From a virus, in the IMG/VR virus record IMGVR_UViG_3300042197_004918, positions 96,001-160,000 of that record: a stretch of DNA of 64,000 nt; one strand, 5' to 3'. Every line of letters starts with the position of its first letter. Within the stretch, counting starts at the first letter, position 1. This document shows positions 2,044 through 46,735 of this stretch, one piece after another. The notes under the pieces were generated by a model, which made no database searches, was not told the DNA's origin, and saw only the letters and a list, made by a program, of their open reading frames with translations. The translations under genes were made by a program, and so were the position numbers.

Positions 2044-2062
2044 ATTTTGTAACACCTTTAGT

Positions 2063-26541: not shown

Positions 26542-27051
26542 ATGGACGAAGATGTGAGAGAATACGGTTGTTTAATGGCGTATATCGAACCGGCTTCTGC
26601 GAATAAAGTGGTGGAGCTTGGAAAAAAGATTATACCTCAATCAATTCTCTACGAGGTTCCTGGTGAAGAATATGGTAGAGAGACAGAACCTCACGTCACC
26701 ATAAAGTATGGTTTCACCCGAGATTTGACCGACGAAGAAGTAAAGAAAATCATCGGAAAAACAAAATCATTCTCCGTAGTCGCTGAAGGCCTAAGCACGT
26801 TTGATGGTAAAGAATTTCAAGTTGTAAAATTTGATATTCGCAGGGATGGGGTATTGTTATCCATGCGTAAGCTATGTGACGCATTTCCAAATAAAGACTC
26901 GCACCCCGACTTCCATCCTCACATGACATTGGCATACACAAAGCTAAAGTCATTCCCACACAAAAAGACCGGTCTATCTCTATCCTTTCGAGTAAACAAA
27001 TTTGTCTACTCTCCTATAACTGGAAAAAAGAGAGACTATAACCTATCTTAA
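26542..27051 (+). CDS. 2H phosphoesterase, T4 gp57B/Acb1-like
   Basis: Two HxT motifs PHVTIKYG and PHMTLAY; GCLM N-terminus. Confidence 0.75.
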   Translation: MDEDVREYGCLMAYIEPASANKVVELGKKIIPQSILYEVPGEEYGRETEPHVTIKYGFTRDLTDEEVKKIIGKTKSFSVVAEGLSTFDGKEFQVVKFDIRRDGVLLSMRKLCDAFPNKDSHPDFHPHMTLAYTKLKSFPHKKTGLSLSFRVNKFVYSPITGKKRDYNLS

Positions 27052-27951: not shown

Positions 27952-27980
27952 TTGACAAAAAAACGGACTGTTTGTATATT
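27952..27980 (+). promoter_or_regulatory. sigma70-type promoter (leaderless)
   Basis: TTGACA-17-TATATT; ATG 6 nt downstream at 27987. Confidence 0.65.
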
Positions 27981-28128
27981 GCTGTAATGGATAATGCCCG
28001 CCTTAAAGAAATCGTCCTCAAGTTGATGGATGATAAGCAGAAATCTACTTTGGTATGTGACCACGGAGATTATAAAGTGATGTTCCCATACTGTATTATG
28101 CAGCATCTAAACGAATTGGAGGATCTTT

Positions 28129-28335
28129 ATGCAGATGAAACTTCGCAAGAAAGTTAAACTTTACAATATCAAGGAACGTCCCGACGGAAACTGGAAACTA
28201 TGTCCACTTTGCGACTCGGAATTGGATTCTTGCCATATCGGAGTATTTTGTTCAAGTAAAAAATGTCGTTATGTAGATGGTATCGCTTTTTTGACCAAAG
28301 GCGAATACAAAAAATTTAAAGATAAAATCGAATAA
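28129..28335 (+). CDS. small zinc-finger protein
   Basis: CPLC...CSSKKC. Confidence 0.5.
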   Translation: MQMKLRKKVKLYNIKERPDGNWKLCPLCDSELDSCHIGVFCSSKKCRYVDGIAFLTKGEYKKFKDKIE

Positions 28336-28373
28336 TTTAGCGGTTTTCAAAATTTCGTAATATGTATTGGATA

Positions 28374-28460
28374 ATGAACGTAGAATCGTATTTACCGTCA
28401 CTGTCTGTGTGGGCACCAGTTGCCCTCGGGAGTGCTGTATTGTCAGCCCCTCTCGGGTAA
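28374..28460 (+). CDS. attenuator leader peptide (28 aa, MNVESYLPSLSVWAPVALGSAVLSAPLG) upstream of the tRNA array
   Basis: Short ORF whose stop abuts an antiterminator/terminator pair; codon content matches the array tRNAs. Confidence 0.7.
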   Translation: MNVESYLPSLSVWAPVALGSAVLSAPLG

Positions 28461-28462
28461 CC

Positions 28463-28500
28463 TTTCTAACGGCATATCTTTACATAAGGACCGTTGGAAA
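28463..28500 (+). promoter_or_regulatory. antiterminator helix
   Basis: TTTCTAACGG (28463-72) pairs 10 bp with CCGTTGGAAA (28491-500), the 5' arm of the terminator. Confidence 0.7.
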
Positions 28501-28517
28501 AACTTCCAACGGTTTTT
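28490..28517 (+). terminator. intrinsic terminator of the attenuator
   Basis: ACCGTTGGAA-aaac-TTCCAACGGT followed by TTTT. Confidence 0.85.
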
Positions 28518-28546
28518 GACGTTTTTGGGATGGTTGAAGAAAGTAG

Positions 28547-28574
28547 TTGACGGATTTGAAAAGAAGTGTAAGAT
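28547..28574 (+). promoter_or_regulatory. possible sigma70 promoter at the head of the RNA array
   Basis: TTGACG-16-TAAGAT. Confidence 0.45.
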
Positions 28575-28717
28575 AGTAACAGTTGAATTTGAAACAAGAC
28601 GTTCGGTTGAAACTCCGAACCGTAGAGGCAGAGTCTAAAAGACAGAGCCGGTCGGGCTAGTCCCGGTCACCACACGATAGGTCTGCCGACTAACCCCCGG
28701 AAAATAAAAGGGTCAAC

Positions 28718-28791
28718 GCGGGTATGATGTAATGGTAGCCTATAACTTTGCCAAAGTTGATGCGAGGGTTCGATTCCCTTTACCCGCTCCA
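28718..28791 (+). tRNA. tRNA-Gly(GCC)
   Basis: Cloverleaf, loop TTGCCAA, U73, CCA. Confidence 0.9.
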
Positions 28792-28792
28792 G

Positions 28793-28879
28793 TAAATTGT
28801 TGTGTAAGTGGATTTAACCACCTTGACAACGGATATAAACCCCTTAACTGGGTTTTCCAATGTAGTCACAACGATTTAT
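28793..28879 (+). ncRNA. unidentified stem-closed small RNA
   Basis: TAAATTGTTGTG/CACAACGATTTA closing helix with two internal hairpins. Confidence 0.5.
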
Positions 28880-28887
28880 CAATTAAT

Positions 28888-28961
28888 GCGGAATTGTTGT
28901 AATGGTAGCGATTCTGATTTACACTCAGACAGAGGGGGTTCAATTCCCTCATTCCGTACCA
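28888..28961 (+). tRNA. tRNA-Val(TAC)
   Basis: Cloverleaf, loop TTTACAC, CCA. Confidence 0.88.
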
Positions 28962-29052
28962 ATTAATTTGTTAACAAAGAAAGCCGAAACCCTTCTGGTA
29001 TGGGAGCGTTTTTATCGGGGGTAAAAGTCCCAACTATCACCGCATTTTCAAT

Positions 29053-29129
29053 GGCCCCGTCGTCTAAGGTGGGTAGGACTTTTGATTCTCAATCAAAGAA
29101 ACTCGGTTCGACCCCGAGCGGGGCTACCA
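29053..29129 (+). tRNA. tRNA-Glu(CTC)
   Basis: Cloverleaf, loop TTCTCAA, CCA. Confidence 0.9.
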
Positions 29130-29217
29130 AATTTAAGGCAAAGCATCCTTTAATCCCAAACCGCACGTAAAGCGGGGATGGAAGCTTGACAGCTGGAGAG
29201 AAAGCACCAATTTTAAT

Positions 29218-29290
29218 GGTCGGCGTATGACACCTCTACAACGGGTTGCTCTGTTGAACAGTGAATAATTACGAGGATCCCCGGCCGCCA
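29218..29290 (+). ncRNA. tRNA-sized RNA with acceptor stem + GCCA but non-canonical core
   Basis: GGTCGG/CCGGCC-GCCA, 73 nt, no TTCR loop. Confidence 0.45.
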
Positions 29291-29294
29291 ACTT

Positions 29295-29376
29295 AAATCA
29301 CGGAAGTTAGGGTTCGAGGTCCTTGGGTCTTCTTGTAGGGAGGACACTTAATGTAAGTGGAAGCATACCGTGATTT
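29295..29376 (+). ncRNA. unidentified four-way-junction small RNA
   Basis: AAATCACGG/CCGTGATTT closing helix with three hairpins. Confidence 0.5.
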
Positions 29377-29386
29377 GAAGTTTTTT

Positions 29387-29461
29387 GGGGGATTAGTGAT
29401 AATGGTAGCACGACTGATTTGCACTCAGTAGGTACTGGTTCGATTCCTGTATCCTCCACCA
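29387..29461 (+). tRNA. tRNA-Ala(TGC)
   Basis: G3:U70, loop TTTGCAC, CCA. Confidence 0.92.
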
Positions 29462-29462
29462 A

Positions 29463-29535
29463 CCGTTCGTAGGATAATGGCTATTCCGCCTGCTTTGGGA
29501 GCAGGATATTGTGAGTTCGAGTCTCACCGAGCGGA
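29463..29535 (+). tRNA. tRNA-Pro(TGG), no encoded CCA
   Basis: C1:G72, loop TTTGGGA. Confidence 0.88.
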
Positions 29536-29604
29536 CAGCGTAGCGCCGGGTTGGGTATTGCTCCAACGGTAATGTGTTAGTGTTAACGCCCGGCGGTCAC
29601 GTAT

Positions 29605-29680
29605 GCTCAAGTGATGTAATTGGAAAACATCTTTGTCTCAAAAACAGAGTTTTGTGGGTTCAACTCCCACCTTGAGCACC
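29605..29680 (+). tRNA. tRNA-Leu(CAA), short variable loop
   Basis: Loop CTCAAAA, A73. Confidence 0.85.
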
Positions 29681-29760
29681 GTTCAGTTGATGAAAATCGT
29701 AGGGAAACATCTGGGACGAAAATCTCGGTTTTGTAGGTTCGACTCCTACACTGAACACCA
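29681..29760 (+). tRNA. tRNA-Phe(GAA)-like with 6-nt anticodon loop
   Basis: Normal acceptor/T arms and CCA; loop CGAAAA lacks U33. Confidence 0.6.
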
Positions 29761-29764
29761 TAAT

Positions 29765-29841
29765 GGTCACGTAGCCCAATTGGCAGGAGGCGCAACGTCG
29801 AGAACGTTGACAGTGTGAGTTCAAATCTCACCGTGACTACC
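29765..29841 (+). tRNA. tRNA-Leu(GAG), short variable loop, C33
   Basis: Loop TCGAGAA. Confidence 0.85.
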
Positions 29842-29848
29842 GTATTTT

Positions 29849-29936
29849 GGGCAAGTATCCAAATGGTGAAGGAGACTGACTGTAAATCAGTTGCCATGTG
29901 CTAAACTTACAGGTTCGAGTCCTGTCTTGCCCACCA
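29849..29936 (+). tRNA. tRNA-Tyr(GTA)
   Basis: Loop CTGTAAA, long variable region, CCA. Confidence 0.9.
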
Positions 29937-29978
29937 AACATCAAGCTCCCTTGAATTACACAACCTATGCATGGGTCA

Positions 29979-30132
29979 ACGAAATGGTGTATTAACCGAT
30001 TGGCTCGGTCGGCCTCTGATGTCTTTGATTTAAACAGACTAGCGTTTTCGGCTAGCCTGGCAGAGTGAGATAGATACCGTAGTAGGGCACGAGGCGGAGA
30101 ACATCAGTGAAATCCTCACAAAACCATTTCGT
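29979..30132 (+). ncRNA. unidentified ~154-nt RNA (rod with internal bubble)
   Basis: ACGAAATGGT/ACCATTTCGT closing helix; CTGATGT/ACATCAG inner helix. Confidence 0.5.
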
Positions 30133-30141
30133 AAGTATAAT

Positions 30142-30219
30142 GGCTACGTAGCCCAATTGGAAGGAGGCGTCTCATTTAAAACGAGAACAGTGCAGGTTCG
30201 AGTCCTGTCGTAGCTACCA
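30142..30219 (+). tRNA. tRNA-Leu(TAA), short variable loop
   Basis: Loop TTTAAAA, CCA. Confidence 0.85.
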
Positions 30220-30423
30220 TTTTTGATTTCGGGTGTATATGACACAACGAATTACGTATATTTGTGTCAAAATGTGGAATGGATTGGGCACGAAACTCCG
30301 AATTGCACTGACCAATCACACTCGAATTTTGAATCTATGTTGGGGCACGGTAGGCTCCGATGTAAGTAGAGGTCGCGGGTGGTGCCCTCGGATGGGTTCA
30401 AGTCCCAGACCACCAAATTTCAT

Positions 30424-30498
30424 AGGGATATAGCTCAATGGCGGAGCAACACAATGACATTGTGAAGGTTGCTGGTTCAAGTCCAGTTATCCCTACCA
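30424..30498 (+). tRNA. tRNA-Val(GAC)
   Basis: Loop ATGACAT, CCA. Confidence 0.87.
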
Positions 30499-30582
30499 GA
30501 TTGAAGAAAATTGTGCTAGATTTAAGCGGTAAACGTAACCGGCTCTCCTAAAGGAAGGGAAATTTTAAATCACTTCAACATT

Positions 30583-30741
30583 TTGTAGATGAGCGGTGGA
30601 GAAGTGCCACTAGAACATGAGTAGTGCGTAAATAGGTGTGTGATGTCCCGACAGTGGAATAAACGGAAACGGCCGTAACAACGGTGTAGCCGCCACGACG
30701 TAGAAAATACGCCATGAAGATTAAATTCTTTCCATCTACAA
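30583..30741 (+). ncRNA. unidentified ~160-nt structured RNA
   Basis: TTGTAGATG/CATCTACAA closing helix with several hairpins. Confidence 0.5.
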
Positions 30742-30750
30742 TCCCTTTAT

Positions 30751-30827
30751 GGTCACGTAGCCCAACGGCAGGAGGCGGGAGTCTTAGAAGCTCTACAGTG
30801 GGGGTTCAAATCCCTCCGTGACCACCA
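30751..30827 (+). tRNA. tRNA-Leu(TAG), short variable loop
   Basis: Loop CTTAGAA, CCA. Confidence 0.88.
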
Positions 30828-31248
30828 TTTTGTTTTTTCTTCTCCAGTTTGGTGTTATGGAATGGCAATTAGGACATAGAAGTTTTAAGTTTTGGTTTTG
30901 ATTATTTTTCTTGTTTCCATCCACATGATGAACCTCAAGCGTTATTGGTTCTCCCAACCAATCCGCAGTCGAGCATCGTTCGCATTTTAATCCTCTCTCT
31001 TTAATGAGACAGTTTCTACGAGCGGTTGCGGAAGAATAATCTTCTAAAGATTTCAAAGATTTACCCTTATTCCACAGTTGATGTGAAAAATGACTTATAT
31101 CAAGATTCAATCGTTCAATATGAAGTTTAACGGACCCCTGAGTCCCGCCGGCTTGAACTAATCCAAGATTTTTCAAAACTTGACTATAAGCACGACTTTT
31201 GGAAACAGCAACTTTTAATTCTTCGTCTGAGTATGTTCTTTTTTTCAT
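30793..31248 (-). mobile_element. free-standing HNH homing endonuclease, antisense, ending inside tRNA-Leu(TAG)
   Basis: CERC..LEVHHVDGNKKNN..NLKLLCPNCH; last codons VVTEGFEPPL* are the tRNA antisense. Confidence 0.88.
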
Positions 31249-31304
31249 ATCAATAAATATGAAACGGTAGACGAATAACACAATATTTATGTGTCAACCA
31301 TTTT

Positions 31305-31548
31305 GAAAACGTGAGCGTGATAAAACGCAATGGGAACTAGACCACAACGAACCGGGAAGAAATGAAAGGTCGATAAACTATAGTTCTCATGTCGATTGAG
31401 GCGGTGCGATAATCCGATGGCGAGCGGACGCTCGTTGTGATTGGAAACAATCATACTATGGGGAACTAAGCGGTGATATATCACAAGGCACCCATAGCGC
31501 AGGGCCAGTCTTAGACACATACGGGTCCGAACCCCGTCGTTTTCACCA
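31305..31548 (+). ncRNA. giant (244-nt) tRNA-like RNA
   Basis: Acceptor GAAAACG/CGTTTTC-A-CCA, D-like hairpin, T arm ACGGG-TCCGAAC-CCCGT, ~190-nt structured insert. Confidence 0.65.
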
Positions 31549-31550
31549 TT

Positions 31551-31783
31551 TTGAAGTAGTAGGCTTAGAAGCAGCCATCTTTAATCAGCGAATCGAAACG
31601 CTGGCGACGACGCCTCCGTGCAACACCGACATTACGATTGGATGTTGTGAACGAGGTGATACATAAGAAGATATAGAGAGATAATAGTCTTGTGTATTGC
31701 CGTCCAGTATCTCCGCAGAAAGTAAACGGATACTCCGTAACTGGTAAGGTCCAATTATTCCTTGGCGTAAAAGCAGACTTCAA
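31551..31783 (+). ncRNA. 23S rRNA GTPase-associated-centre (H43/H44) mimic RNA, copy 1
   Basis: TTGAAG/CTTCAA closing helix; GTAGGCTTAGAAGCAGCCATCTTTAA ... GCGTAAAAGCAGAC. Confidence 0.75.
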
Positions 31784-31786
31784 TAT

Positions 31787-31863
31787 CCATCCGTCGCCTA
31801 ACTTGGTATGGCATCTCATTTGGGGTGAGAAATAATCTCGGTTCAAATCCGGGCGGGTGGACC
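31787..31863 (+). tRNA. tRNA-Pro(TGG)
   Basis: C1:G72, loop TTTGGGG. Confidence 0.88.
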
Positions 31864-31864
31864 T

Positions 31865-32132
31865 GATTAGAAGAAAGTAGGCTTAGAAGCAGCCATCTTT
31901 TAAAAAGTGACGAGTGGAAAAAGTATCTGTTGCAACAGAGAAATAAGCGTAACGGGTTTGTCAAGTCCCCGACGTATAACCACAGGGAATATAAATCCAA
32001 AAAACGATGTAAATAGTTACGGTGGGACAAGCAAGGTTGACCAACTAATGTAGAATAACGAGTGTCTAAGGGGTTCTACAAATGACTATTTTACCCTTTA
32101 ACAGTCTTTGGCGTCATAGCATACTTCTAATC
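31865..32132 (+). ncRNA. 23S rRNA GTPase-associated-centre (H43/H44) mimic RNA, copy 2
   Basis: GATTAGAAG/CTTCTAATC closing helix; AAAGTAGGCTTAGAAGCAGCCATCTTTTAAA ... GCGTCATAGCATAC. Confidence 0.75.
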
Positions 32133-32137
32133 TTTAT

Positions 32138-32208
32138 AGCGTGGCTACTGGGTAGTGCGGAAACTCCAAATCTCTGCTTCGTCGGTTCGATTCCGACTCA
32201 CGCTGCCA
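32138..32208 (+). tRNA. tRNA-Trp(CCA), shrunken D arm and extended anticodon stem
   Basis: Loop CTCCAAA, G73, CCA. Confidence 0.75.
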
Positions 32209-32239
32209 GTGGTGTCAGTAACACAAAACTATTGATTAT

Positions 32240-32355
32240 CGCAGTTAGGGCAAAGATACGAGCCGCCACGGTATGGACTGTGGAGGGGTGTGTGAGACGA
32301 GATTTGACGCTGGAATCTATCACTGTTAACAGGTTAAAGTCCTGTAGCTGCGACC
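32240..32355 (+). ncRNA. enlarged (116-nt) tRNA-like RNA
   Basis: Acceptor CGCAGTT/AGCTGCG-A-CC, T arm ACAGG-TTAAAGT-CCTGT, extra hairpins. Confidence 0.55.
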
Positions 32356-32363
32356 TTAATTTT

Positions 32364-32438
32364 CGGGATGTAATGTCAGTGGCAGACGGCCGAGCCTGGA
32401 ACTCGGAGGTCGCAGGTTCGAGTCCTGTCATCCCGACC
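32364..32438 (+). tRNA. tRNA-Pro(TGG) with C33/A37
   Basis: C1:G72, A73, loop CCTGGAA. Confidence 0.78.
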
Positions 32439-32503
32439 GTGTGAGTGTGCATACAGAACTAATCGGGACAAATGCCGAAAAGTAATCCGAGTTCACATAT
32501 AAT

Positions 32504-32575
32504 GGTCTGTTCGTCTATCGGCTAGGACGATGCCCTTTCAAGGCGTAAAGATGGGTTCGATTCCCATACGGACTA
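32504..32575 (+). tRNA. tRNA-Glu(TTC), no encoded CCA
   Basis: Loop CTTTCAA. Confidence 0.9.
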
Positions 32576-32577
32576 CA

Positions 32578-32826
32578 GTTTAACACGGTCGATCTATAGC
32601 GGGTGTAGAAATACATCTGAGGAAGTTCGCGCCACTAAAGCAGTTGATTGGGAGAATCGGCCGAGAGCAGAAATGCCGGTCGCAAAGACAGCCGATTCGT
32701 TAATACCACACAATAAGTGCAAGCCAAACAGAGCCGAGGGTAGTGCTTCCCGTTATGGTAGGCTCGGGTTGGTGCATAGTCAAATTATAGAATAAAACAG
32801 AAGCGCGGCTACATGATATGTTAAAC
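32578..32826 (+). ncRNA. rnpB: RNase P RNA, reduced (~250 nt)
   Basis: P1 GTTTAACA/TGTTAAAC; CR-I GAGGAAGTTCGCGC pairs with CR-V ACAGAAGCGCGGCTA (P4); GTGCAAGCCAAACAG resembles the GAGCAAGGCCAAAUAG element. Confidence 0.8.
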
Positions 32827-32869
32827 CATTTTTGATTGACTTGTCGTTTGAGATGTCCTATCATTTTAT

Positions 32870-33110
32870 TATGAATACTTCATCTATTGCAGAAACTTGT
32901 TCTTTTTGTAAAAACCCGGCTGCAGGATACAATATCATGGGAGATTTTTGCAGTGGACATAAAGAACTGTTTGTCAGAGATTGGACAAAACAGACTTTGT
33001 ATGACCTATTACTTGAATACCCGAATGAACGGGTGGATGGTTTGGTGAAGTTGTTCAATGGATATAAAAACTTCACAACACGCTGGCCCGATGGTAATAT
33101 CGTTGGATGA
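32870..33110 (+). CDS. hypothetical protein
   Basis: ORF from MNTSS, leaderless behind TTGACT..TATCAT. Confidence 0.55.
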
Positions 33111-33619
33111 AGAAATATCAAATGTATCTCAACGTAGGGGATTGGTCTGGTGATGGTCACGAAAAACACGACCGAGTTTTGGTTGAATCCAACCTTCCGG
33201 TTGCCGACGTCCAACAGGCATACAAGGATTCTTGTAAGTTGACCGGAGTTCAACTCAACGGTAATGAAGATTATACCGGTATTAAACGCGATTGGATGGC
33301 CGCTAGAGAAGTCCAGCTTCTCACCGAGTATGAGGAATCAAAAATTACTCCAAAACAATTTGAAGTGTTACAAAAACACGGATTGAAGTCGAAAATGATA
33401 GCCAAGTGGAACGGAGAAGATGATGCCGAAGAAACTGCTGAAGGTGGATATTATATCTACGGTGTCGATGCGTATGTCAAATTTTGGATATGGTTCACAT
33501 CACTCTCCAACAAAAAACTAAAAATTACCGAAATTCCTGACGATGAAAACATCCCCAATATCAACGGATACTGGGATAAAAATCTCAACGCGGGATTTGG
33601 ATATGGAATTTATTCTTAA
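33107..33619 (+). CDS. conserved phage hypothetical protein
   Basis: GDWSGDGHEK ... GYGIY motif. Confidence 0.75.
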   Translation: MKKYQMYLNVGDWSGDGHEKHDRVLVESNLPVADVQQAYKDSCKLTGVQLNGNEDYTGIKRDWMAAREVQLLTEYEESKITPKQFEVLQKHGLKSKMIAKWNGEDDAEETAEGGYYIYGVDAYVKFWIWFTSLSNKKLKITEIPDDENIPNINGYWDKNLNAGFGYGIYS

Positions 33620-33624
33620 CTAAT

Positions 33625-33701
33625 GGTCAAGTGATGTAATTGGAAAACATCGTTTACTCAAAATAAACGTTTTGTGGGTTCAACTCCCATCTTGACTACC
33701 A
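33625..33701 (+). tRNA. tRNA-Leu(CAA), second copy
   Basis: Near-duplicate of 29605-29680; CCA. Confidence 0.88.
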
Positions 33702-34320
33702 ATTTCTTTGCTCGTCGGTAGTTTCGTCCGTTCTCAAGTCCGACCTTTTTAAGAGCTTGGTGGATATTTTCCGAAGATTTTAACGATTCAATCAACTCTT
33801 CATCAGAAACATTTCTTTTGATTTTATTTCTTCCACCATAAGTGGGTGTTATGGAATGACAGTTCGGACACAACAATCTTAGATTTTCACGAGTATTGTT
33901 TCTTCTGTCTCCGTTAATATGGTCTAATTGAAGAGACAGTTTAACCCCATTCCAACTATCAATTCCACACAAACATTTGTCGGATTGTTCAGATGAAATC
34001 AAAGATTTGATAACGTTTTTACTTAAAAGTTCAAATGGAGTTTTGGAAATTCTATCGTCTAAAGATTTCCGAGAAGCTATAACCGCCTTAATTCTATCAT
34101 CGTTTGTAAAAACTTTTCGTCTTGAGTCAAACCCCGAAACGAATCCTCTGCCGGGGGATGATTTACCTGTCAAGGTTTTAGACACCTTTTCGTTTATCTC
34201 CTTTCTCTTATTTTTGGTTGCAAACGACCTAGAACATTTAATAGAACAGAATCGTCCGCTTCCAATAATAATTGAAAAGTCGGAATTACAATTTTCACAA
34301 GATTTTATCACAGAGTTCAT
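33658..34320 (-). mobile_element. free-standing HNH homing endonuclease, antisense, ending inside tRNA-Leu(CAA)
   Basis: CENC..FCSIKC zinc finger; LQLDHINGDRRNNTRENLRLLCPNCH; last codons LVVKMGVEPTKRLF* are the tRNA antisense. Confidence 0.88.
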
Positions 34321-34364
34321 ATAGACATAAATATATCTCTGTAGGTTCAAAAGCAAAAATATTT

Positions 34365-34440
34365 GCGGATGTAGCTCAACTGGCAGAGCGCTTGCCTTCC
34401 AAGCAGGCTGTTGTGGGTTCAACTCCCATCATCCGCTCCA
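34365..34440 (+). tRNA. tRNA-Gly(TCC)
   Basis: Canonical cloverleaf, U73, CCA. Confidence 0.95.
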
Positions 34441-34607
34441 TGAATACTAATCAGAAACGAATTAAACACGAGGAGGATTACATAAACTTCCTCGAAAAAC
34501 GTCTCGGTAGTATGAATTTCAAAAGGAATTCTTCTCCGGAAGAAATTGAAAAAACTGAAGCAAAACTCAAGAAAGCAAAGTTGGTTTTGAGAGTTTTGAA
34601 GAAGTAA
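34440..34607 (+). CDS. 55-aa protein resembling the ValRS C-terminal coiled-coil tRNA-binding arm
   Basis: FLEKRLGSMNFKRNSSPEEIEKTEAKL vs ValRS consensus EKKLSNEGFVAKAPEEVVEKEREKL; ATG shares the A of the tRNA CCA. Confidence 0.55.
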   Translation: MNTNQKRIKHEEDYINFLEKRLGSMNFKRNSSPEEIEKTEAKLKKAKLVLRVLKK

Positions 34608-34610
34608 ATT

Positions 34611-34698
34611 GGACGGTTATCCCGTAGGGGTAGCGGTACGCGCTGTAAACGCGTTGCCTTAACAGGCTCGGGTGGTTCAACTCCATCACCGTCCACCA
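34611..34698 (+). tRNA. tRNA-Tyr(GTA), second copy
   Basis: Loop CTGTAAA, long variable arm, CCA. Confidence 0.88.
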
Positions 34699-34835
34699 TG
34701 AAAAAAATAAATCGCCTAAACGAACCTAAGAAAGATAAAACAAAGGTGAGGGTTCCTCAATGGACTCTGGCACTGATGGTTGCTGGTGTGATAAGTAAGG
34801 ATTCGGTCGTTGAGACATTAAAACAATCAAAGTGA
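34698..34835 (+). CDS. 45-aa hypothetical protein starting at the tRNA CCA
   Basis: CCA-TG junction; MKKINRLNEPKK... Confidence 0.4.
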   Translation: MKKINRLNEPKKDKTKVRVPQWTLALMVAGVISKDSVVETLKQSK

Positions 34836-34866
34836 GACTTTATCTAAGTAGTGACTATTTATAGTT

Positions 34867-35436
34867 ATGAACAGATTCAAGTTTCTTTCGGTATTTCTTT
34901 TAACTTCGTTAATCCTCTTAACGTCGGTATTTTTTACTGGATGTGAGAACGGGTCCGCTCAAACATCGACAAAGTTACCGTCAGCTCCTTCAAAGGTTTA
35001 TACAGCGGATGAGCTGCAAAATTTAATGTTTAAAAACGGTATAAACACCGGAACATTCTTACTTGCCGACAAAAACTACGTATTAACTACAAGGGAGTGG
35101 ATTAGGTCTGACTTTTCCCGTGGTCTGACAGCATTTCAGTTTCAGATGGGGATAGACAAGTGGGTGGCTGAAACAAATGATTGTGATAAATTCGCCACTG
35201 CTGCGACATTTTATGCTAAGTGGCTGAGTCATTCATCCCCGAACAGAAATGTTAGAGCATCCCTCGCTTTTGGTGAACTGCACTATTCGAGGGAGAGTGA
35301 CGGACGTGCCCACGCTATAAATTTCTTCGTAGTTAATGAAGGGGAACTCAAACTCGTGTTCTATGAACCACAAAATCATAAAATCGTGAATTTGACCAAG
35401 GGTGAACAATTTAGTGTATTCTTCTGGAGACTATGA
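34867..35436 (+). CDS. lipoprotein with papain/transglutaminase-like (MOA agglutinin C-terminal) domain
   Basis: Lipobox FTGC; NDCDKFA..HAINFF..YEPQN. Confidence 0.6.
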   Translation: MNRFKFLSVFLLTSLILLTSVFFTGCENGSAQTSTKLPSAPSKVYTADELQNLMFKNGINTGTFLLADKNYVLTTREWIRSDFSRGLTAFQFQMGIDKWVAETNDCDKFATAATFYAKWLSHSSPNRNVRASLAFGELHYSRESDGRAHAINFFVVNEGELKLVFYEPQNHKIVNLTKGEQFSVFFWRL

Positions 35437-35544
35437 AAAAACTCATTTTAATAATCGTATTTTCGTCAGTATTGATGGCCTGTAAGACGGCCGACGTGTT
35501 TCCACCAAGGAACATCCCAAAGCCCCCTGTAGAGTTCTCTAGTA

Positions 35545-35572
35545 TTGACAAATAATCAATCTACTGTATAGT
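35545..35572 (+). promoter_or_regulatory. sigma70-type promoter (leaderless)
   Basis: TTGACA-16-TATAGT; ATG 6 nt downstream. Confidence 0.65.
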
Positions 35573-35578
35573 GTTCTT

Positions 35579-35941
35579 ATGGATGAGAACGAAGTATTGA
35601 ACGAGATTTTTGGTCAGACGCCCTTGTGGAAGGGTAAATATAAAATCAAGTGGTGTGAACTGTGTCGGACTTCCATCATCGTGTGTGAAGAGTGTAAGAA
35701 CAGTTCTTGTAACGGCGGCGGATGTAAGGAGTGTGACGAAGCATTTTCGTCCTTCGCTAAGGCCAAGACAACCATTGAAGAATATCTCACCGAAGAAGAA
35801 ATATACGCATACCACAAAGCGATGTATTTGAAGGAGTTTATACAAACGTCACTCGGTAAGGGTGAAAATGAAATTGACTTTGAACGGATGAATAGAGACG
35901 GTGAACTTTCCGAAGTAACGCGAAAGATGTTTTTGAAGTAA
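35579..35941 (+). CDS. Cys-rich hypothetical protein
   Basis: CELC, CEEC, CNGGGCKEC. Confidence 0.65.
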   Translation: MDENEVLNEIFGQTPLWKGKYKIKWCELCRTSIIVCEECKNSSCNGGGCKECDEAFSSFAKAKTTIEEYLTEEEIYAYHKAMYLKEFIQTSLGKGENEIDFERMNRDGELSEVTRKMFLK

Positions 35942-35947
35942 TTTAAT

Positions 35948-36022
35948 GGGTCTATGGTGAAATTGGACATCATAGGAGTTTCCTAAACTTTTGTTTCCGG
36001 TTCGAGTCCGGATAGACCTACC
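35948..36022 (+). tRNA. tRNA-Arg(CCT)
   Basis: Loop TTCCTAA. Confidence 0.85.
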
Positions 36023-36325
36023 GCGCGGGTTTCGGTTGGGTGCCCCAAAGGACGGGATTAACTCCGTCAGAGGCCCATGTGGTCGAGGGAGTTGATTGAA
36101 ACCAACTCCAAACCGTTTTAATTTTATGAACATGGATCGTATGTTAGATGAAGGTGGTTACACCTTAGACGAAGAGTTATTTATAGCAAATCACTCTTCC
36201 ATAGAAATATGCGAACTGTGTGGTGACTATTTTGCTATTCATCCCGACTACTGTTATGTCGGACGCAATAATTTCGTAGAATTGACCTTTGGAGGACGAT
36301 TCTACTGTCAGAAGTGTAAGTAATT

Positions 36326-36416
36326 GGATGGTAAACCCGAAAGGTTTGGGAACTGCCTCGAAAACAGATTGCTGGGCTTAAAACCCAGTGGGCTTCGATT
36401 GCTCTGCCATCCGCCA
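36326..36416 (+). tRNA. tRNA-Ser(CGA)
   Basis: Loop CTCGAAA, long variable arm, G73, CCA. Confidence 0.82.
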
Positions 36417-36419
36417 GAT

Positions 36420-36686
36420 ATGGAAACAATAAGATTGTGTGCTCGAGTAGTGGACAACGGCGATAAATCCGTTAATTTAGTTGACTTGCTCGTTGGGTCA
36501 AAATTGACAAAGAGCAAACGAGAGGCGAGAGATTTAATCTCTTCGGGTGGAGCTTACATAAACGGCGTCCGAACCACTGAAAATAGAGATATATCTACGG
36601 ATGATTTGATTGGTGATGAAATAGTTCTCCGTAAAGGTAAAAAAACACATTTTGTTCTAAAGTTCTTAAATATAAGAGGTAAGTAA
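36420..36686 (+). CDS. stand-alone S4 RNA-binding domain like the TyrRS C-terminus
   Basis: LVDLLV..KL.KSKREARDLISSGGAYING...IVLRKGKK. Confidence 0.8.
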   Translation: METIRLCARVVDNGDKSVNLVDLLVGSKLTKSKREARDLISSGGAYINGVRTTENRDISTDDLIGDEIVLRKGKKTHFVLKFLNIRGK

Positions 36687-36719
36687 AACCGATAGGTTTG
36701 GTCATTGGAATGCAAAACC

Positions 36720-37454
36720 TCAAGGCGAGGTCGGTGATTGGAAATCACCTGGACGCCCTAAACCAGCGTTGAGATTCGAGTTCTCTACATTCCGCAGTAT
36801 TATTTCCAGATATTTTTCTGAAGTTCTGTCGTTGAAGTGTTTTTGGTCAGAAATATCTATGACTACTAACTTGATGCTGTTTTCCAAACAAGATTTAACT
36901 TTCTTTTTATCATTCTTGACGGTGGAAACCAGTTTATCTTTTCCAAAAATCGGTTTATAATGAAAAATACCGTTCAATTCAAAAGCCAATCTCAAAGAGG
37001 GAATATAAATATCCAACTCGGAGTTTATGTCTTTTCTCTGATTAAATCTAATCTCTAATGTTGGAAAAGTTTTTTTAAGTTTCTCTTCCAAATATTTTTC
37101 AAGTTTAGATCTCCTACAACCACACGATTTTCTAACAAAATGTTCATTATTATACTTTGCTGCACAAGAATTTGAACAGAATTGATTTCCGGTTTTTGAC
37201 CTCTTAATGAGAGAATTCTTTCTATAAAAAGAAAGGTCACACACTTTACACTTCACGATTTTTCCTTTATTTAGAGCAACATTTCTACAATCCGTTCCAC
37301 AGTATTTTAAAATTTTCCTATATCCACATTTCTCCGACCATTTGATGTCGTTTTTCTTTCCGTAAAATTGGGCATGGCAATTTTCACATTCCAACTTTAA
37401 TTTTTCCGTGGATTTGGCAGAAGAAAATTCCTCATCCGTGTAAAGCTTAATCAT
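36720..37454 (-). mobile_element. PD-(D/E)XK (Vsr/DUF559-like) homing endonuclease with zinc fingers
   Basis: ELDIYIPSLRLAFELNGIFHY; CENC, CKVC, FCSNSC. Confidence 0.75.
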
Positions 37455-37500
37455 GTTAATAAATATCAAGGAATTTTCCGAAAACACGGCTTACCGCCTG

Positions 37501-37722
37501 CTACTTCATTATGGAAACCATGTAGTCGCCAGTCAAAGATGGGGTGTAATAACTATTCGTATTTCCACGTTTCTCATATAATGGAATGAAAGTGTTTCCG
37601 TCTTTATCAGTGTAACCTTTCCTTACAAGTCTGTAATATTCTTTATTGACTTGGACGTTGTATGGGTCTGAACATGAGACAAACAATAGGGTGGTGAGGA
37701 CCAAAAAAATCTTTTTCATCAA
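37501..37722 (-). CDS. small lipoprotein
   Basis: Lipobox FVSC. Confidence 0.55.
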   Translation of the reverse strand: MMKKIFLVLTTLLFVSCSDPYNVQVNKEYYRLVRKGYTDKDGNTFIPLYEKRGNTNSYYTPSLTGDYMVSIMK

Positions 37723-37763
37723 AAATAAATATCTCGTTATGATTCTAACACATATTTATAAAC

Positions 37764-38015
37764 GTGGAAGATAAAGACATCAAACAATTAGGTGTATATC
37801 TCGACTTGTGTGGAGAACGTGAGTTTTTATTAAGTGCGGTCTGGTTATCTTTCAGATACAAGGAAATTCATCCAGAGTGGAACGTCAATCAGTGTTTTGA
37901 ACAAGCAATTTGGGATGTTATGGTGAGTGAAGCCAAGCGTGAAACTAAACTCGATTTAAGGTCAACTGTGGAGAAGATAAACCAAATCCAAAGCTTGTGT
38001 TCCACCAAAAAGTAG
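37764..38015 (+). CDS. hypothetical protein
   Basis: ORF after TATTTAT. Confidence 0.5.
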   Translation: MEDKDIKQLGVYLDLCGEREFLLSAVWLSFRYKEIHPEWNVNQCFEQAIWDVMVSEAKRETKLDLRSTVEKINQIQSLCSTKK

Positions 38016-38051
38016 GTTGACAAGTATTATAATTACACGTATGATCTCTAC

Positions 38052-38558
38052 GTGCAGACATTTCTACCATACTCGGATTTTTCAAAATCAGCAAATTGTT
38101 TAGATGACCGCCGGCTTGGAAAGCAGAGAGTAGAGGGTTATCAAATTCTAAAATCTCTAAGCATCGGCCCGTATCAACGTTTCCACAAAGATGCTTGGGT
38201 AGCTTGTGACGAGAGAACGTATAATTCGTTAAAATCATTGAAAGTCAAGAAGTTGGTTAGAAAAACTCCTTGGTATAATCATCCAGCCACAAAAATGTGG
38301 GCGGGGTCTGAGGGTTCTCTAAAAGAATACACAGTTACCGTATGTTCAGTTTGGACCAGCCGTGGATTCAAGGATACGATTACCGATAAACTCAATAGTG
38401 TCCCGAATTCTTCTATAAAGAGTAAAACTCCAAGTTGGATTGGCGATGAGTCGTTCCACGCTGCCCATCGTTCTAATTTGTTAAGAAAAAACAAAGTATG
38501 GTATTCTAAGTTTAATTGGAAAGAATCGGACGATTTACCTTATGTCTGGCCAAAGTAA
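38052..38558 (+). CDS. pyrimidine-dimer DNA glycosylase (DenV-like)
   Basis: MQTFLPY..LD..RLGKQRVE..Q, WYNHPA.KMW, H..HRSNLLRK, YVWP. Confidence 0.85.
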   Translation: MQTFLPYSDFSKSANCLDDRRLGKQRVEGYQILKSLSIGPYQRFHKDAWVACDERTYNSLKSLKVKKLVRKTPWYNHPATKMWAGSEGSLKEYTVTVCSVWTSRGFKDTITDKLNSVPNSSIKSKTPSWIGDESFHAAHRSNLLRKNKVWYSKFNWKESDDLPYVWPK

Positions 38559-38621
38559 GATTCTGAAAGAAAAGGCTAGACGAAACGGATTTCAGTGGTA
38601 TAGTTATTTTGTAGTGAGAAT

Positions 38622-38701
38622 GGTTCCGTAGCCAAGATGAAATAAGGCGTCTGTTCCGCAAGGACAGAAAATCGGTGGTTTAATTCCATCCGGGACCTCC
38701 A
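38622..38701 (+). tRNA. tRNA-Cys-like with aberrant 9-nt (GCAA-tetraloop-forming) anticodon loop
   Basis: U73-CCA; TCTGT-TCCGCAAGG-ACAGA; D loop lacks GG. Confidence 0.55.
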
Positions 38702-38704
38702 GTC

Positions 38705-38779
38705 GGGCAGGTCGTCTAGTGCTTAGGATATTCCCCTTCGCGGGGAAAGACGAAGGTTCAAATCCTTCCCTGCCCACCA
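38705..38779 (+). tRNA. atypical tRNA, anticodon TCG (Arg?)
   Basis: Loop CTTCGCG, Glu/Asp-like D arm, CCA. Confidence 0.55.
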
Positions 38780-38783
38780 GTAT

Positions 38784-39041
38784 ATGAAAACAAAACTGTA
38801 GAATTGTAAAGAAGTCGTGTTTCACTTCAACAAGGGTCACCTGGCCAATCCAGAGATTCCTATGTGGGTGTTAAAAACAAAAGGCGAAAGCTACTATGTG
38901 AATCACGTCACCGCGAGTTGTTCTTGGACAACCAAGGAAACTCCCGACAATCCTACAACCAAAGGTTCTTTGAAGTTTAAGAACGTGGATGTGGAAATCA
39001 GTGAAGATAGAGAAGCGACAATTTTTGCGTCTGTAGTTTAA
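38784..39041 (+). CDS. conserved phage protein with in-frame TAG at codon 6 (MKTKL*NCKEVVFHFNK...)
   Basis: ATG 38784, TAG 38799-801, then open to TAA 39039-41 inside the suppressor tRNA. Confidence 0.6.
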
Positions 39042-39101
39042 TGGTCAGAACTGGCGCCTCTAAAACGCCGTGTGTGGGTTCGACTCCCATTGGACGCACC
39101 A
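39027..39101 (+). tRNA. amber suppressor tRNA (CTA)
   Basis: GGCGC-CTCTAAA-ACGCC anticodon arm, canonical D/T arms, A73-CCA. Confidence 0.78.
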
Positions 39102-39343
39102 TGTTTGAAAAAATTAACGAACTGTTTAGTGCTTTGGAGAAAGAGTTCCCATATTCAACTATGGGAGTAGATTTTAAGGGACGCCATGCCATAACGAGGG
39201 AGAGAGATGGAGTATTAGTTGTCTCTGTTTGGTCCAAGGGTTCAGTCTATCCAATAGGCGTTGACCCTAAAGATTTTGAAGATATTAACAAGTTTGTGGC
39301 CGATTCGAGAGTGATAGTGGATGGATGGAAGAAATCTGGTTGA
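39101..39343 (+). CDS. hypothetical protein starting at the tRNA CCA
   Basis: CCA-TG junction; MFEKINELF..., 80 aa. Confidence 0.6.
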   Translation: MFEKINELFSALEKEFPYSTMGVDFKGRHAITRERDGVLVVSVWSKGSVYPIGVDPKDFEDINKFVADSRVIVDGWKKSG

Positions 39344-39367
39344 CGGAATCGGAAAGTCTGATATAGT
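39340..39367 (+). promoter_or_regulatory. sigma70-type promoter of the large ncRNA
   Basis: TTGACG-16-TATAGT. Confidence 0.6.
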
Positions 39368-39393
39368 TATTTCAAGGTTAGTTGAGTGAACAC

Positions 39394-40354
39394 GAAAGAC
39401 CTTAGATTAAAAACTCAACTGTATGATTGATACACAAATTAATCCGTTTACTGGTGACGATAGTGCGGTAAGACCGATGTGGGGTTGATTTAATCCACGT
39501 AGTTTTGAGGTGACTTATCATCCTCACGTTTTGTTGATTGTTCTTTGTAAGTAGAATTTGGGAGGCCTGACTCCCTTCAAGATAAACCGTCGTAAGACGG
39601 CTAAAGCAGAAACCCCCTAACGGGACTGCGCCACAGTAATGTGGACACTCAGGCAACTGACGAATCAGTGTCTTTCACTCAAAAGGTGGAAGTATGTCTG
39701 AAGCTGGATTGGTAAATGGTGATTGAGGGTAACACTGTAAATCATCTACTAACGGTACCGCCGAGCACTACTAATTCCTAACGGAACAGCCAAGAATAAG
39801 ATTCAAGTCAAACGTATAGATACAAGTCCGCAAGCAAGTGTTTATATGTAGAATGATAGAGAGTGGCCCAGGGTAACCGAGGACATAATCTTGAAATTCG
39901 GTGAAGTATCCGCAAGAGAAACACAAATGGTGTGTGGTATATTGGTTCCCAAAAGGAATTGATGTCACAAGCAACGCACGTCATTGTTAGGTGCATATTA
40001 TATCATTGTTAGATAAACTATATACAAAAAAGCCAAGTCGTTGCTTGTGTTCGTCGAAAAGAACGTAACTCTGAGGCCGTAAGGTAACTCAGACAACGAA
40101 GCGCTCGCAAGGTGTTAGTTGTTGATCCGAGTTTGGACGTGGTCCGCAAGACCTAATTGCTCGCAAGGCAACCGTTTGAATAGAGGTTGATTAGATGGAC
40201 ATTAAAGATGAAAAGCCGCATCTCTAAAAAGGCCGTTCTGTCAAATACAGACATAAACCGTAAGGTTGTGGATGTGGATACGTTGGGAAAGCAGCCCGCA
40301 AGGTTGTAATAATCCAATCAAAGGTTGACACGAAACACTGTAGTCTCAGGTTTC
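39394..40354 (+). ncRNA. large (~960-nt) ncRNA, probably GOLLD
   Basis: No credible ORF; many GCAA/GTAA-tetraloop hairpins; 3' GGGAAA..ATAATCCAATCAAAGG..TGTAGTCTCAG resembles the GOLLD 3' domain as I recall it; tRNA-adjacent. Confidence 0.6.
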
Positions 40355-40359
40355 ATTTT

Positions 40360-40448
40360 GGATGGGTGGCGGAGCCCGGTTTATCGCGCTAGTCTTGAAA
40401 ACTAGAGAGGCCTAAAAACCTCCGTAGGTTCAAATCCTACCTCATCCG
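40360..40448 (+). tRNA. tRNA-Ser(TGA)
   Basis: Loop CTTGAAA, long arm, G73. Confidence 0.92.
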
Positions 40449-40453
40449 CAGTT

Positions 40454-40545
40454 GGAAGTTAGCCAAATATTGGTTTGTTGGAGCTGTTTGCTAAACAGTG
40501 CCGGTGTAAAAGCCGGTGAGGGTTCGATTCCCTTGACTTCCGCCA
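40454..40545 (+). tRNA. tRNA-Ser(GCT)
   Basis: Loop TTGCTAA, long arm, G73, CCA. Confidence 0.88.
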
Positions 40546-40560
40546 TCCCGCAGTAGGCAT

Positions 40561-40594
40561 TCTCCGATGACGTAATTGTTGTCGGAGGATTTTT
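40561..40594 (+). terminator. terminator closing the RNA array
   Basis: TCTCCGATGAC/GTTGTCGGAGGA hairpin followed by TTTTT. Confidence 0.6.
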
Positions 40595-45301: not shown

Positions 45302-46735
45302 ATGAATGCTAACGAAAATATTATCCTTTTAACGGATAGCTACAAAGTCGGACACCACAATATGTATCCGACAGGCACACAGAATGTTTACAGCTACTTT
45401 GAGAGCCGTAAAGGTGCCAAATTCAACGAAACCGTCTTCTTCGGGCTCCAAGCATACTTGAAAAAGTATTTTGCTGGAGTCGTCGTGACTCAGACCGACA
45501 TTGACAAGGCGGACGAGTTTTGCAAAGAACACTTCCTTGGAATGAATTTCTTTAATCGTGCCATGTGGCAACGTATTGTTGACGTTCACAATGGAAAACT
45601 TCCTCTCCGGATTATGGCTGTCAAAGAAGGAACTCCCGTTCCGGTCGGCAACGTCTTGATGACGGTTGAGGCCACGGACGAGACGATTAACCCTGAGACT
45701 GGTAACGCTTATTTCGCTCCTCTTACAAATGTGTTTGAAACCATCTTGACTCACGTTTGGCACCCAAGCAATGTCGCCACTATCAGTCGGGACATCAAGA
45801 AACACTTGAAGGCTGGTTTCGATAAAACGGTTCCCGACGAATTGGGTTGGTTACTTGACTATATGCTCCACGATTTCGGTTTCCGTGGAGTAAGCTCGGT
45901 TGAATCGGCTGGAATGGGTGGTGCAGGACATTTGGTTAATTTCAAGGGAACAGATACCCTCGTCGCAATCACTTATGCCCGGCGTTATTACAACACAACT
46001 GAAATGGTGGCTCACAGCGTTGCTGCCACGGAACACAGTGTTATGACCGCAGAAGGGCCTGCTGGCGAGTTTAAGGTGGTTGAGAAGTTGATTAAAGACT
46101 ATCCCGCCGGCATCCTTTCGGTTGTCAGCGACAGTTACGACATTGAGAACGCCATCAGACAGTATGGAACTACATACAAAGAGGCTATCCTTGGACGAAA
46201 TGACGGTGCTAAGTTTGTTATTCGTCCGGACAGCCCTCGGTTTGAGGACGATACGCCGGCAGCACAAATTCTATGGATTGCTCAGGAGCTTGAGAAGTAT
46301 TTCGGTGCTACGGTGAACGGTAAAGGATACAAGATGCTTCACCCGAAAGTTGGTATCATCTACGGAGATGGACTCAGCCGAGATGAAATCATCGAAGCAA
46401 TCGACACGCTTATTGTGAATGGATACGCCGCAAGCACTTGTGTCTTCGGTATGGGTGGTGGATTGTTACAGAAACACAATCGGGACACTCAACGAAACGC
46501 TTTCAAGTGTTCGGCTCAGAAGCGTGGAGACAAGTGGGTTGAAATCTTCAAAGACCCAAAGGACAAGACCAAGGCATCGAAACGTGGTCGTCTCGCACTT
46601 GTCTTGGAAAACGGCCAGTATAAGACCGTGTTGGAGAGTGAAGCGAAAGACAATCTCTTGGAAGTCGTTTTTGAGAACGGTGTTTTGACCCGAGATATGA
46701 CGTGGAACGAAGTTCGTAACAACGCAAAAGTATGA
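45302..46735 (+). CDS. nadV: nicotinamide phosphoribosyltransferase
   Basis: TDSYK..H, LHDFGFRG, GTDT, ATEHS, SVVSDSYD, IRPDS, GMGGGLLQK.NRDT, KDP..SKRG. Confidence 0.95.
   Translation: MNANENIILLTDSYKVGHHNMYPTGTQNVYSYFESRKGAKFNETVFFGLQAYLKKYFAGVVVTQTDIDKADEFCKEHFLGMNFFNRAMWQRIVDVHNGKLPLRIMAVKEGTPVPVGNVLMTVEATDETINPETGNAYFAPLTNVFETILTHVWHPSNVATISRDIKKHLKAGFDKTVPDELGWLLDYMLHDFGFRGVSSVESAGMGGAGHLVNFKGTDTLVAITYARRYYNTTEMVAHSVAATEHSVMTAEGPAGEFKVVEKLIKDYPAGILSVVSDSYDIENAIRQYGTTYKEAILGRNDGAKFVIRPDSPRFEDDTPAAQILWIAQELEKYFGATVNGKGYKMLHPKVGIIYGDGLSRDEIIEAIDTLIVNGYAASTCVFGMGGGLLQKHNRDTQRNAFKCSAQKRGDKWVEIFKDPKDKTKASKRGRLALVLENGQYKTVLESEAKDNLLEVVFENGVLTRDMTWNEVRNNAKV

Follow-up and report, generated by a model that had tools for sequence, protein, structure and literature searches.

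The stretch of DNA analysed here (the window) comprises 64,000 nt, positions 96,001 to 160,000 of the IMG/VR record IMGVR_UViG_3300042197_004918, which we take to come from an uncultured freshwater giant phage. The window contains an island of tRNA genes and noncoding RNAs. Its 24 tRNA genes, all on the + strand, form the sole tRNA array across the 173.8 kb of this record, which is about 49% complete and is classed as a provirus in IMG/VR. None of the 24 was identified by ARAGORN as a tRNA for Lys, Ile, Thr, Asp, Gln or His. Between the last upstream protein gene and the island lie a short ORF, an intrinsic terminator and a sigma70-type promoter, and the strand following the ORF is able to pair with the 5' arm of the terminator (Table 1).

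Table 1. Features of the tRNA island and of the region ahead of it (window coordinates)
Feature	Position	Strand	Details
Cys-rich 68-aa gene	28129..28335	+	ORF list; last protein gene before the element
A/U-rich stretch before the leader start	28344..28373	+	-10-like TATGTA (28361-28366); conserved in all lineages
Leader ORF	28374..28460	+	28 codons + TAA; sequence read; kept in 11 lineages
Candidate strand 1 (anti-antiterminator)	28379..28385	+	pairs with 28464-28471; strand 2 may instead pair with 28395-28398
Two in-ORF hairpins	28411..28455	+	28411-28425 and 28427-28455; folds
Strand 2, antiterminator strand TTTCTAACGG	28463..28472	+	pairs with 28491-28500; AACGG core invariant in 11 lineages
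Spacer, loop of the antiterminator hairpin	28473..28489	+	sequence free, length fixed
Intrinsic terminator	28490..28526	+	5' arm 28490-28499 (strand 3), loop 28500-28503, 3' arm 28504-28513 (strand 4), U tract
Sigma70-type array promoter	28547..28574	+	TTGACG, 16 nt, TAAGAT
5' leader RNA of the array transcript, structured and conserved	28575..28717	+	kept in all lineages, hairpin tips vary
tRNA and ncRNA island	28718..40545	+	24 tRNA genes, ARAGORN; Rfam; terminator scan
GOLLD RNA	39925-40352		inside island; Rfam RF02032, full-length, 211 bits, E 5.5e-59
Island end terminator	40559-40590		terminator scan

The GOLLD RNA directly precedes the last two tRNA-Ser genes and the terminator that ends the island, and further strong sigma70-like sites occur inside the island. 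A weak match to the archaeal RNase P RNA lies between tRNA genes at 32581-32823 (34 bits; gathering score 84). The array also includes a tRNA with the anticodon CUA at 39027-39101, an amber suppressor called ‘Pyl’ by ARAGORN, which is retained in lineage L059 (14154-14229). It may point to a reassignment of TAG in part of the phage genes; the leader stop codons described below are TAA or TGA.

The island is flanked by genes for a tRNA nucleotidyltransferase, a CCA-adding enzyme with an HD domain (57450-58880), and for a 2H-phosphoesterase/2'-5' RNA ligase-like protein (26542-27051), the latter with a weak match to Acb1. These two genes and the array look like a module for tRNA supply and repair. 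NAD salvage genes are found at 45302-46735 (nicotinamide phosphoribosyltransferase) and 60511-61638 (a cytidylyltransferase-like/dephospho-CoA-kinase fusion). At the left end of the window, a DUF1501 protein (E 9e-135) and a neighbour of 685 aa are encoded on the - strand (1-3451). The DUF1501 family is typical of bacterial genomes and the record is classed as a provirus, so the window may at this end consist of host DNA or hold a gene of host origin.

Leader, terminator and promoters ahead of the array

As a preliminary description of this DNA had claimed, the leader ORF consists of 28 sense codons followed by TAA. A recount of its codons also agrees with that description: the first 21 are each distinct, and 26 of the 28 encode one of the nine amino acids V, E, S, Y, L, P, W, A and G. 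Tandem repeats of one regulatory codon were not found in the leader. Of two in-frame ATGs, the one at 28374 is the start codon that is conserved; the one at 28362 was discarded, as it is mutated or stopped in L060, L083 and L092, the last of which has a stop codon closing the frame of the upstream ATG.

Shine-Dalgarno sites are nearly absent from the phage genome, where 8% of upstream regions contain AGGA and 5% contain GGAG, and initiation at 28374 can therefore not be judged from the sequence. The A/U-rich stretch with its -10-like hexamer in front of the ORF may be a weak promoter of its own that yields a leaderless or near-leaderless leader mRNA. The sigma70 call in the window at this place (28346-28375) is weak, with a 9/12 match, and would start transcription inside the ORF. 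The homologous site of L105 is a good sigma70-like one (TTGACT-17-TATATA) with the ATG 7 nt past the -10 hexamer, and this spacing, together with the near-absence of Shine-Dalgarno sites, makes a leaderless leader mRNA plausible, if unproven.

A T occupies position -1 in 60% of the starts of this genome, and the motif TATTTATA, which may be a phage-specific promoter, recurs about 8-15 nt upstream of many starts. Further upstream of the leader, a strong sigma70-like promoter at 27952-27989 (TTGACA-17-TATATT, 11/12), again with an ATG 7 nt past the -10 hexamer, predicts a leaderless mRNA for a 56-aa ORF (27987-28157) that is missing in the relatives.

Strand 2 begins 2 nt past the leader stop codon, and its pairing with the terminator region extends over 10 bp, including one G-U pair. 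With an inner stem of 5 bp, the resulting 2:3 hairpin has a predicted stability of -13.2 kcal/mol. The terminator itself reaches -18.7 kcal/mol, with a perfect 10-bp stem that is extended to 13-15 bp, the loop AAAC and a U tract, and it is the strongest terminator-like site within 26-42 kb. The pairing next to the stop codon, the strong terminator and the position of the array about 200 nt downstream were all part of the preliminary description and are present. When the upstream 30-120 nt are shuffled with dinucleotides preserved, 0.8-3% of the shuffles show complementarity to the terminator arm as good as this, and 6% do so under the laxer mononucleotide null; by themselves, these statistics are only suggestive. 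By analogy with known ribosome footprints, a ribosome standing at the stop codon would mask strand 2. Among public sequencing runs, none listed for this region is an RNA set, and two that might be RNA match only tRNA-like fragments and one short unrelated fragment.

The promoter between the terminator and the first tRNA gene, earlier regarded as possible, is present and conserved. Its hexamers are kept in 12 compared lineages with a spacing of always 16 nt while the spacer sequence varies, and it is found in L105 as well. Conservation of hexamers and spacing around a changing spacer is the phylogenetic footprint of a working promoter. The same promoter is kept in L090 and L093, two lineages without the terminator. 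Because a promoter lies downstream of the terminator in every lineage, the array can be expressed without read-through, and the claim that an attenuator is ‘gating’ the array is too strong. Since the array has a promoter of its own, an attenuator at this site would only add read-through to a basal supply.

Conservation of the element among relatives

Relatives were collected as syntenic metagenomic contigs through homologues of the small flanking proteins, and three more through a DNA pattern; this set contains 11 distinct versions of the element that are intact and two that are degraded. Among GenBank phage records, no DNA relatives of the phage were found, and none through its 97-aa protein either; in IMG/VR, a scan with the 183-aa protein gave no match and one with the 892-aa protein gave matches of the N-terminal domain only. 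A scan for the strand 2-to-strand 3 pattern returned 20 matches, 19 of them due to chance within coding DNA and the remaining one in the known relative L058. The same relative was the only match of a scan with the array-leader pattern, and a 17-mer match in L080 was dismissed as chance.

Nucleotide identity across the element is 83-94% in most lineages (87-94% in the close group) and 77% in L092, and L087 is alignable only from the terminator onward. Blastn does not align the neighbouring protein gene, and the flanking proteins share 50-73% identity; homologues of the 68-aa protein, for which no Pfam match was found, are 65-73% identical. Within the block 28374-28472, 7% of positions are variable, compared with 38% and 65% in its flanks. 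An ExoX-like gene is located between the 68-aa gene family and the element in L047, L092 and L105, where the element still adjoins the tRNA genes; it thus travels with the array and not with the upstream gene. The structured RNA with which the array transcript begins (28575-28717) is likewise conserved (Table 1), and in one strain's contig, both arms of its hairpin at 28654-28664 are altered together while the attenuator region upstream is identical.

Short ORF, antiterminator strand and terminator are kept as a layout in 11 lineages, which is what the preliminary description had proposed to look for ahead of arrays in related phages. The ORF has a length of 25-29 codons in these lineages and starts with ATG throughout. 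Its stop codon is located 5-7 nt upstream of AACGG in all 11, and 0-3 nt from the first paired base of strand 2. The AACGG core can pair with CCGTT in the terminator 5' arm. CCGTTGG follows AACGG at a distance of 23 nt in 10 lineages and of 25 nt in L105, even though 11 of the 17 spacer positions vary among close relatives. Strand 2 therefore appears as a conserved island outside the ORF and beside a variable spacer. Lineages differ in the bases by which they maintain the extent of pairing between strands 2 and 3, which amounts to 9 bp in L087 and, by eye, to 8 Watson-Crick bp in L105. Across the 11 lineages, the 2:3 hairpin ranges from -9.7 to -13.9 kcal/mol and the terminator from -13.4 to -19.2 kcal/mol, the terminator being the more stable in every one of them. 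The terminator stem is conserved and its loop varies, with a loop insertion in L054.

Changes within the ORF bear the marks of a coding sequence. The window and L085 differ at 21 nt of the ORF, which change 14 codons. In 8 of these the amino acid stays the same (P=0.001), compared with 2-3 synonymous changes in the other two frames; the 8 include multi-base switches between Ser codons (TCA to AGT) and between Leu codons (CTG to TTA). All indels are in frame (+3, -3 and -9 nt). The ORF of L085 carries a 3-nt insertion, and in L092 the middle is rewritten with a net loss of 3 nt, leaving it one codon shorter. L105 has only the core SLSVWAPV in common with the window and L085, and its unrelated C-terminal half is three codons shorter and ends in frame. 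The leader of L087, not alignable by blastn, encodes an unrelated peptide of 28 aa. Divergence of this extent with the ORF and its stop position retained, and the synonymous bias seen with L085, fit a translated leader in which translation and the position of the stop codon matter. Based on these patterns, the leader ORF is probably translated.

The element shows much of what is expected of an attenuator. A short ORF under selection, as judged from 11 lineages and the synonymous bias, lies upstream; a conserved terminator separates it from the genes; an antiterminator pairing at fixed spacing excludes this terminator in all lineages; and in all of them, the stop codon sits beside the antiterminator strand. 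Absence of a promoter after the terminator would also be expected, and here a promoter follows (28547-28574) and terminator-less lineages exist. That ORF, stop position, complementarity and terminator are kept even where the leader sequence is unrelated supports the core of the attenuator reading, and on balance we judge it probable, from sequence comparison, that a ribosome-dependent (leader-peptide) transcription attenuator heads the tRNA island.

The ORF could instead encode a small functional peptide, as the last gene of the upstream unit, with the terminator insulating the array promoter and the complementarity being a by-product, for instance what is left of a direct repeat of the 3' arm. 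Such an explanation would agree with the conservation of the peptide at the amino-acid level, with synonymous change, in the clade of the window, L085 and L105 (core SLSVWAPV). It would also agree with the conserved promoter directly downstream, with a terminator that beats the alternative hairpin in every lineage, and with the near identity of strands 2 and 4. We nevertheless find it unlikely. L087 has an unrelated peptide, and half of the peptide is replaced in L105 and L092, yet the ORF retains its length and the place of its stop codon; no Pfam protein family matches the peptide. A complementarity that would weaken an ordinary terminator is retained in all lineages, with extensions specific to L087 and L105. 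The element is also missing where no array follows: it was not found in six more distant phages that have the 97-aa gene and no tRNA within 3.5 kb.

The two degraded versions lost the terminator independently, through deletions by recombination between the direct repeats formed by strands 2 and 4 (L090, 2540-2570; L093, 1440-1460). In both, the ORF is damaged as well, by a frameshift in L090 and by a change of ATG to ATA in L093. Each of these lineages is known from a single low-coverage contig; L093 has an array, and the L090 contig ends before any tRNA gene.

Returning to the putative attenuator, its leader RNA is itself structured. The region 28340-28530 folds compactly (z-score -3.6), and most variable sites of the leader block fall in predicted loops. 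A candidate strand 1 at 28379-28385 is seen in the minimum free energy folds of the window and six close variants of its clade as well as in L085 and L092. RNAalifold favours 28395-28398 as the partner of strand 2, which makes the partner ambiguous in the window clade, and strand 1 is absent from the L087 fold. A hairpin just ahead of the stop codon is present in every lineage including L087; at this position, L105 has an unrelated hairpin of 8 bp (by eye). This pre-stop hairpin may serve as a pause hairpin for RNA polymerase. In the in-ORF hairpins, compensatory changes from U-A to C-G occur in L085 and L092, where the stems are reshaped; covariation amounts to two pairs.

These structural signals, the low variability of the block and the richness of the island in structured RNAs might also suggest that 28374-28472 is a structured RNA with an incidental reading frame, either a riboswitch-like sensor whose expression platform is the terminator/antiterminator pair, or a small RNA that carries a terminator of its own. 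This appears quite improbable, as a Rfam search of 27-42 kb at E<=1 gave nothing at 28340-28720, be it a T-box, a riboswitch or a known leader, the covariation is thin, the indels are all in frame, the synonymous bias is found in one frame only, and L087 is not structured in its leader (z +0.3) yet keeps ORF, strand 2 and terminator. With no Rfam match, and with a switch retained in L087 without the fold and with an unalignable leader, the leader structure is not read as a conserved ligand-binding domain of the riboswitch or T-box kind. By analogy with the trp leader, we read the leader hairpins as putative pause or anti-antiterminator elements of the attenuator.

Codon content of the leader and of the array

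The tRNAs of the array read 26 of the 27 leader codons, whereas the corresponding share in the proteome is 0.55. In the other two frames of the leader RNA, 18/26 and 19/26 codons are readable. Among 3060 open windows of 27 codons in the 12.4-kb tRNA island, one reaches 26/27. The array-amino-acid content of the leader is reached by 50 of 20000 composition-matched frames and, among the 499 short ORFs in the genome, by a single one, presumably the leader. The codon match is frame-specific and unusual in the window clade, at a level of about 1e-3, and is no artefact of composition. Lys and Ile, for which the array has no tRNA, make up 7.8% and 6.3% of residues in long ORFs, in line with the abundance earlier ascribed to them.

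Among relatives, most arrays are incomplete, and the match is less uniform. G001 alone among the relatives has a complete array, which reads 25 of 27 leader codons, and the ten rewritten codons of L092 are all array-readable. Codon 7 is ATA in L058, L081, L083 and L088 and is accompanied there by a tRNA-Ile(UAU), but not in L059 (4/5); codon 7 of the window is TTA, and its array has a tRNA-Leu(UAA) and no tRNA-Ile. The relatives' leaders also contain codons for Thr, Lys, Gln, Asn and Asp whose matching tRNAs were not found in their mostly incomplete arrays. ACA (Thr) and AAA (Lys) codons without a cognate array tRNA are counter-examples, and codon 23 of G001 is TTA with no tRNA-Leu(UAA) present there. 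In L087, 10/27 codons are readable by the ARAGORN list, against 0.22, or 13/27 against about 0.3 when a Val-like tRNA (C33), uncalled and recognized by eye, is added; with this tRNA counted, L087 tends in the direction of the window.

Of the earlier claim that leader codons match the array, the statistical part stands for the window clade, and its generality is reduced by L087 and by the counter-example codons. Given the weaker match in L087 and these counter-examples, codon sampling stays a hypothesis. Under this hypothesis, the leader would be a codon-matched test message which measures the supply of the array's own tRNAs, where a stall at any one of about 22 different codons would open the terminator, so that a shortage tops up transcription of the array in a feedback loop; we hold this to be possible but somewhat doubtful. 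Such a shortage could stem from host codon bias, host shut-off or a tRNA-cleaving defence, and one may do no more than speculate that an anticodon-nuclease defence is what is sensed.

The tRNA with the anticodon UAU (Ile, reading ATA) is unusually long at 91-93 nt in L081 (9206-9298), L083 (8424-8516), L088 (8418-8508) and L097 (2902-2994). It is absent from the window and distinct from the tRNA-Tyr genes.

Proposed mechanism and known systems

If the element acts as a leader-peptide attenuator, transcripts would arrive from the upstream protein genes, through the promoter at 27952, or from the weak promoter at the leader start. Under brisk translation, the ribosome would reach the stop codon at 28458-28460 and cover strand 2; the terminator hairpin at 28490-28513 with its U tract would then form, and transcription would end about 30 nt before the array promoter. 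A ribosome held within roughly the first 22-24 codons would leave strand 2 free to pair with 28491-28500, thereby blocking the terminator, and RNA polymerase would cross the promoter and enter the tRNA genes. Slow decoding would in this way add read-through transcription of the array to the output of the constitutive promoter. Translation of the leader, the ribosome-position logic, the direction of regulation and the supply of array tRNAs as the signal are what we infer here.

In most discussions, the tRNA arrays of phages are treated as constitutive cargo that corrects a codon-usage mismatch or replaces tRNAs destroyed by host defence systems. To our knowledge, the control of their expression is essentially unknown, and a literature search found no publication on leader-peptide attenuation ahead of tRNA genes. 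If the mechanism holds, phages regulate their tRNA supply by measuring decoding speed, and the classic logic of attenuation extends from amino-acid operons to tRNA genes. A mini-ORF whose stop codon abuts a copy of the 3' arm of a terminator would be the signature by which to search for such switches in other phages.

T-box riboswitches resemble the phage element in taking a terminator/antiterminator decision on tRNA status ahead of translation-related genes. In T-boxes, an RNA domain binds uncharged tRNA directly and translation is not needed; the phage element, on the other hand, has no Rfam match and its sensor region is not structurally conserved in L087.

The closest layout is that of the enterobacterial amino-acid leaders. 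Like trpL, hisL, leuL, thrL, pheL and the ilv leaders, the phage element has a short leader ORF whose stop codon lies beside a strand that pairs with the terminator 5' arm. It also shares with them mutually exclusive hairpins, of which the terminator is the more stable, and a partly structured leader RNA. In the E. coli trp leader, the 2:3 hairpin is weaker than the 3:4 hairpin, and in the phage element it is likewise weaker than the terminator hairpin. Sequence relationship to these leaders is lacking, and the phage element precedes tRNA genes instead of biosynthetic enzymes. Its leader contains no tandem regulatory codon, as nearly all of its codons differ and 26/27 are array-readable. It further differs in having an independent promoter past the terminator, no Shine-Dalgarno sequence and perhaps a leaderless mRNA.

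In its lack of codon repeats, the phage leader is more akin to the drug-responsive stalling attenuators, in which the short ORF is generic and a stall anywhere in a sensitive stretch flips the terminator to the antiterminator. The leaders of ermK type and those of bmrB-bmrCD, vmlR and lmo0919 found by Term-seq respond to ribosome-targeting drugs and control bacterial resistance genes. By comparison, the output of the phage element is a tRNA island, and the codon set of its leader matches that output.
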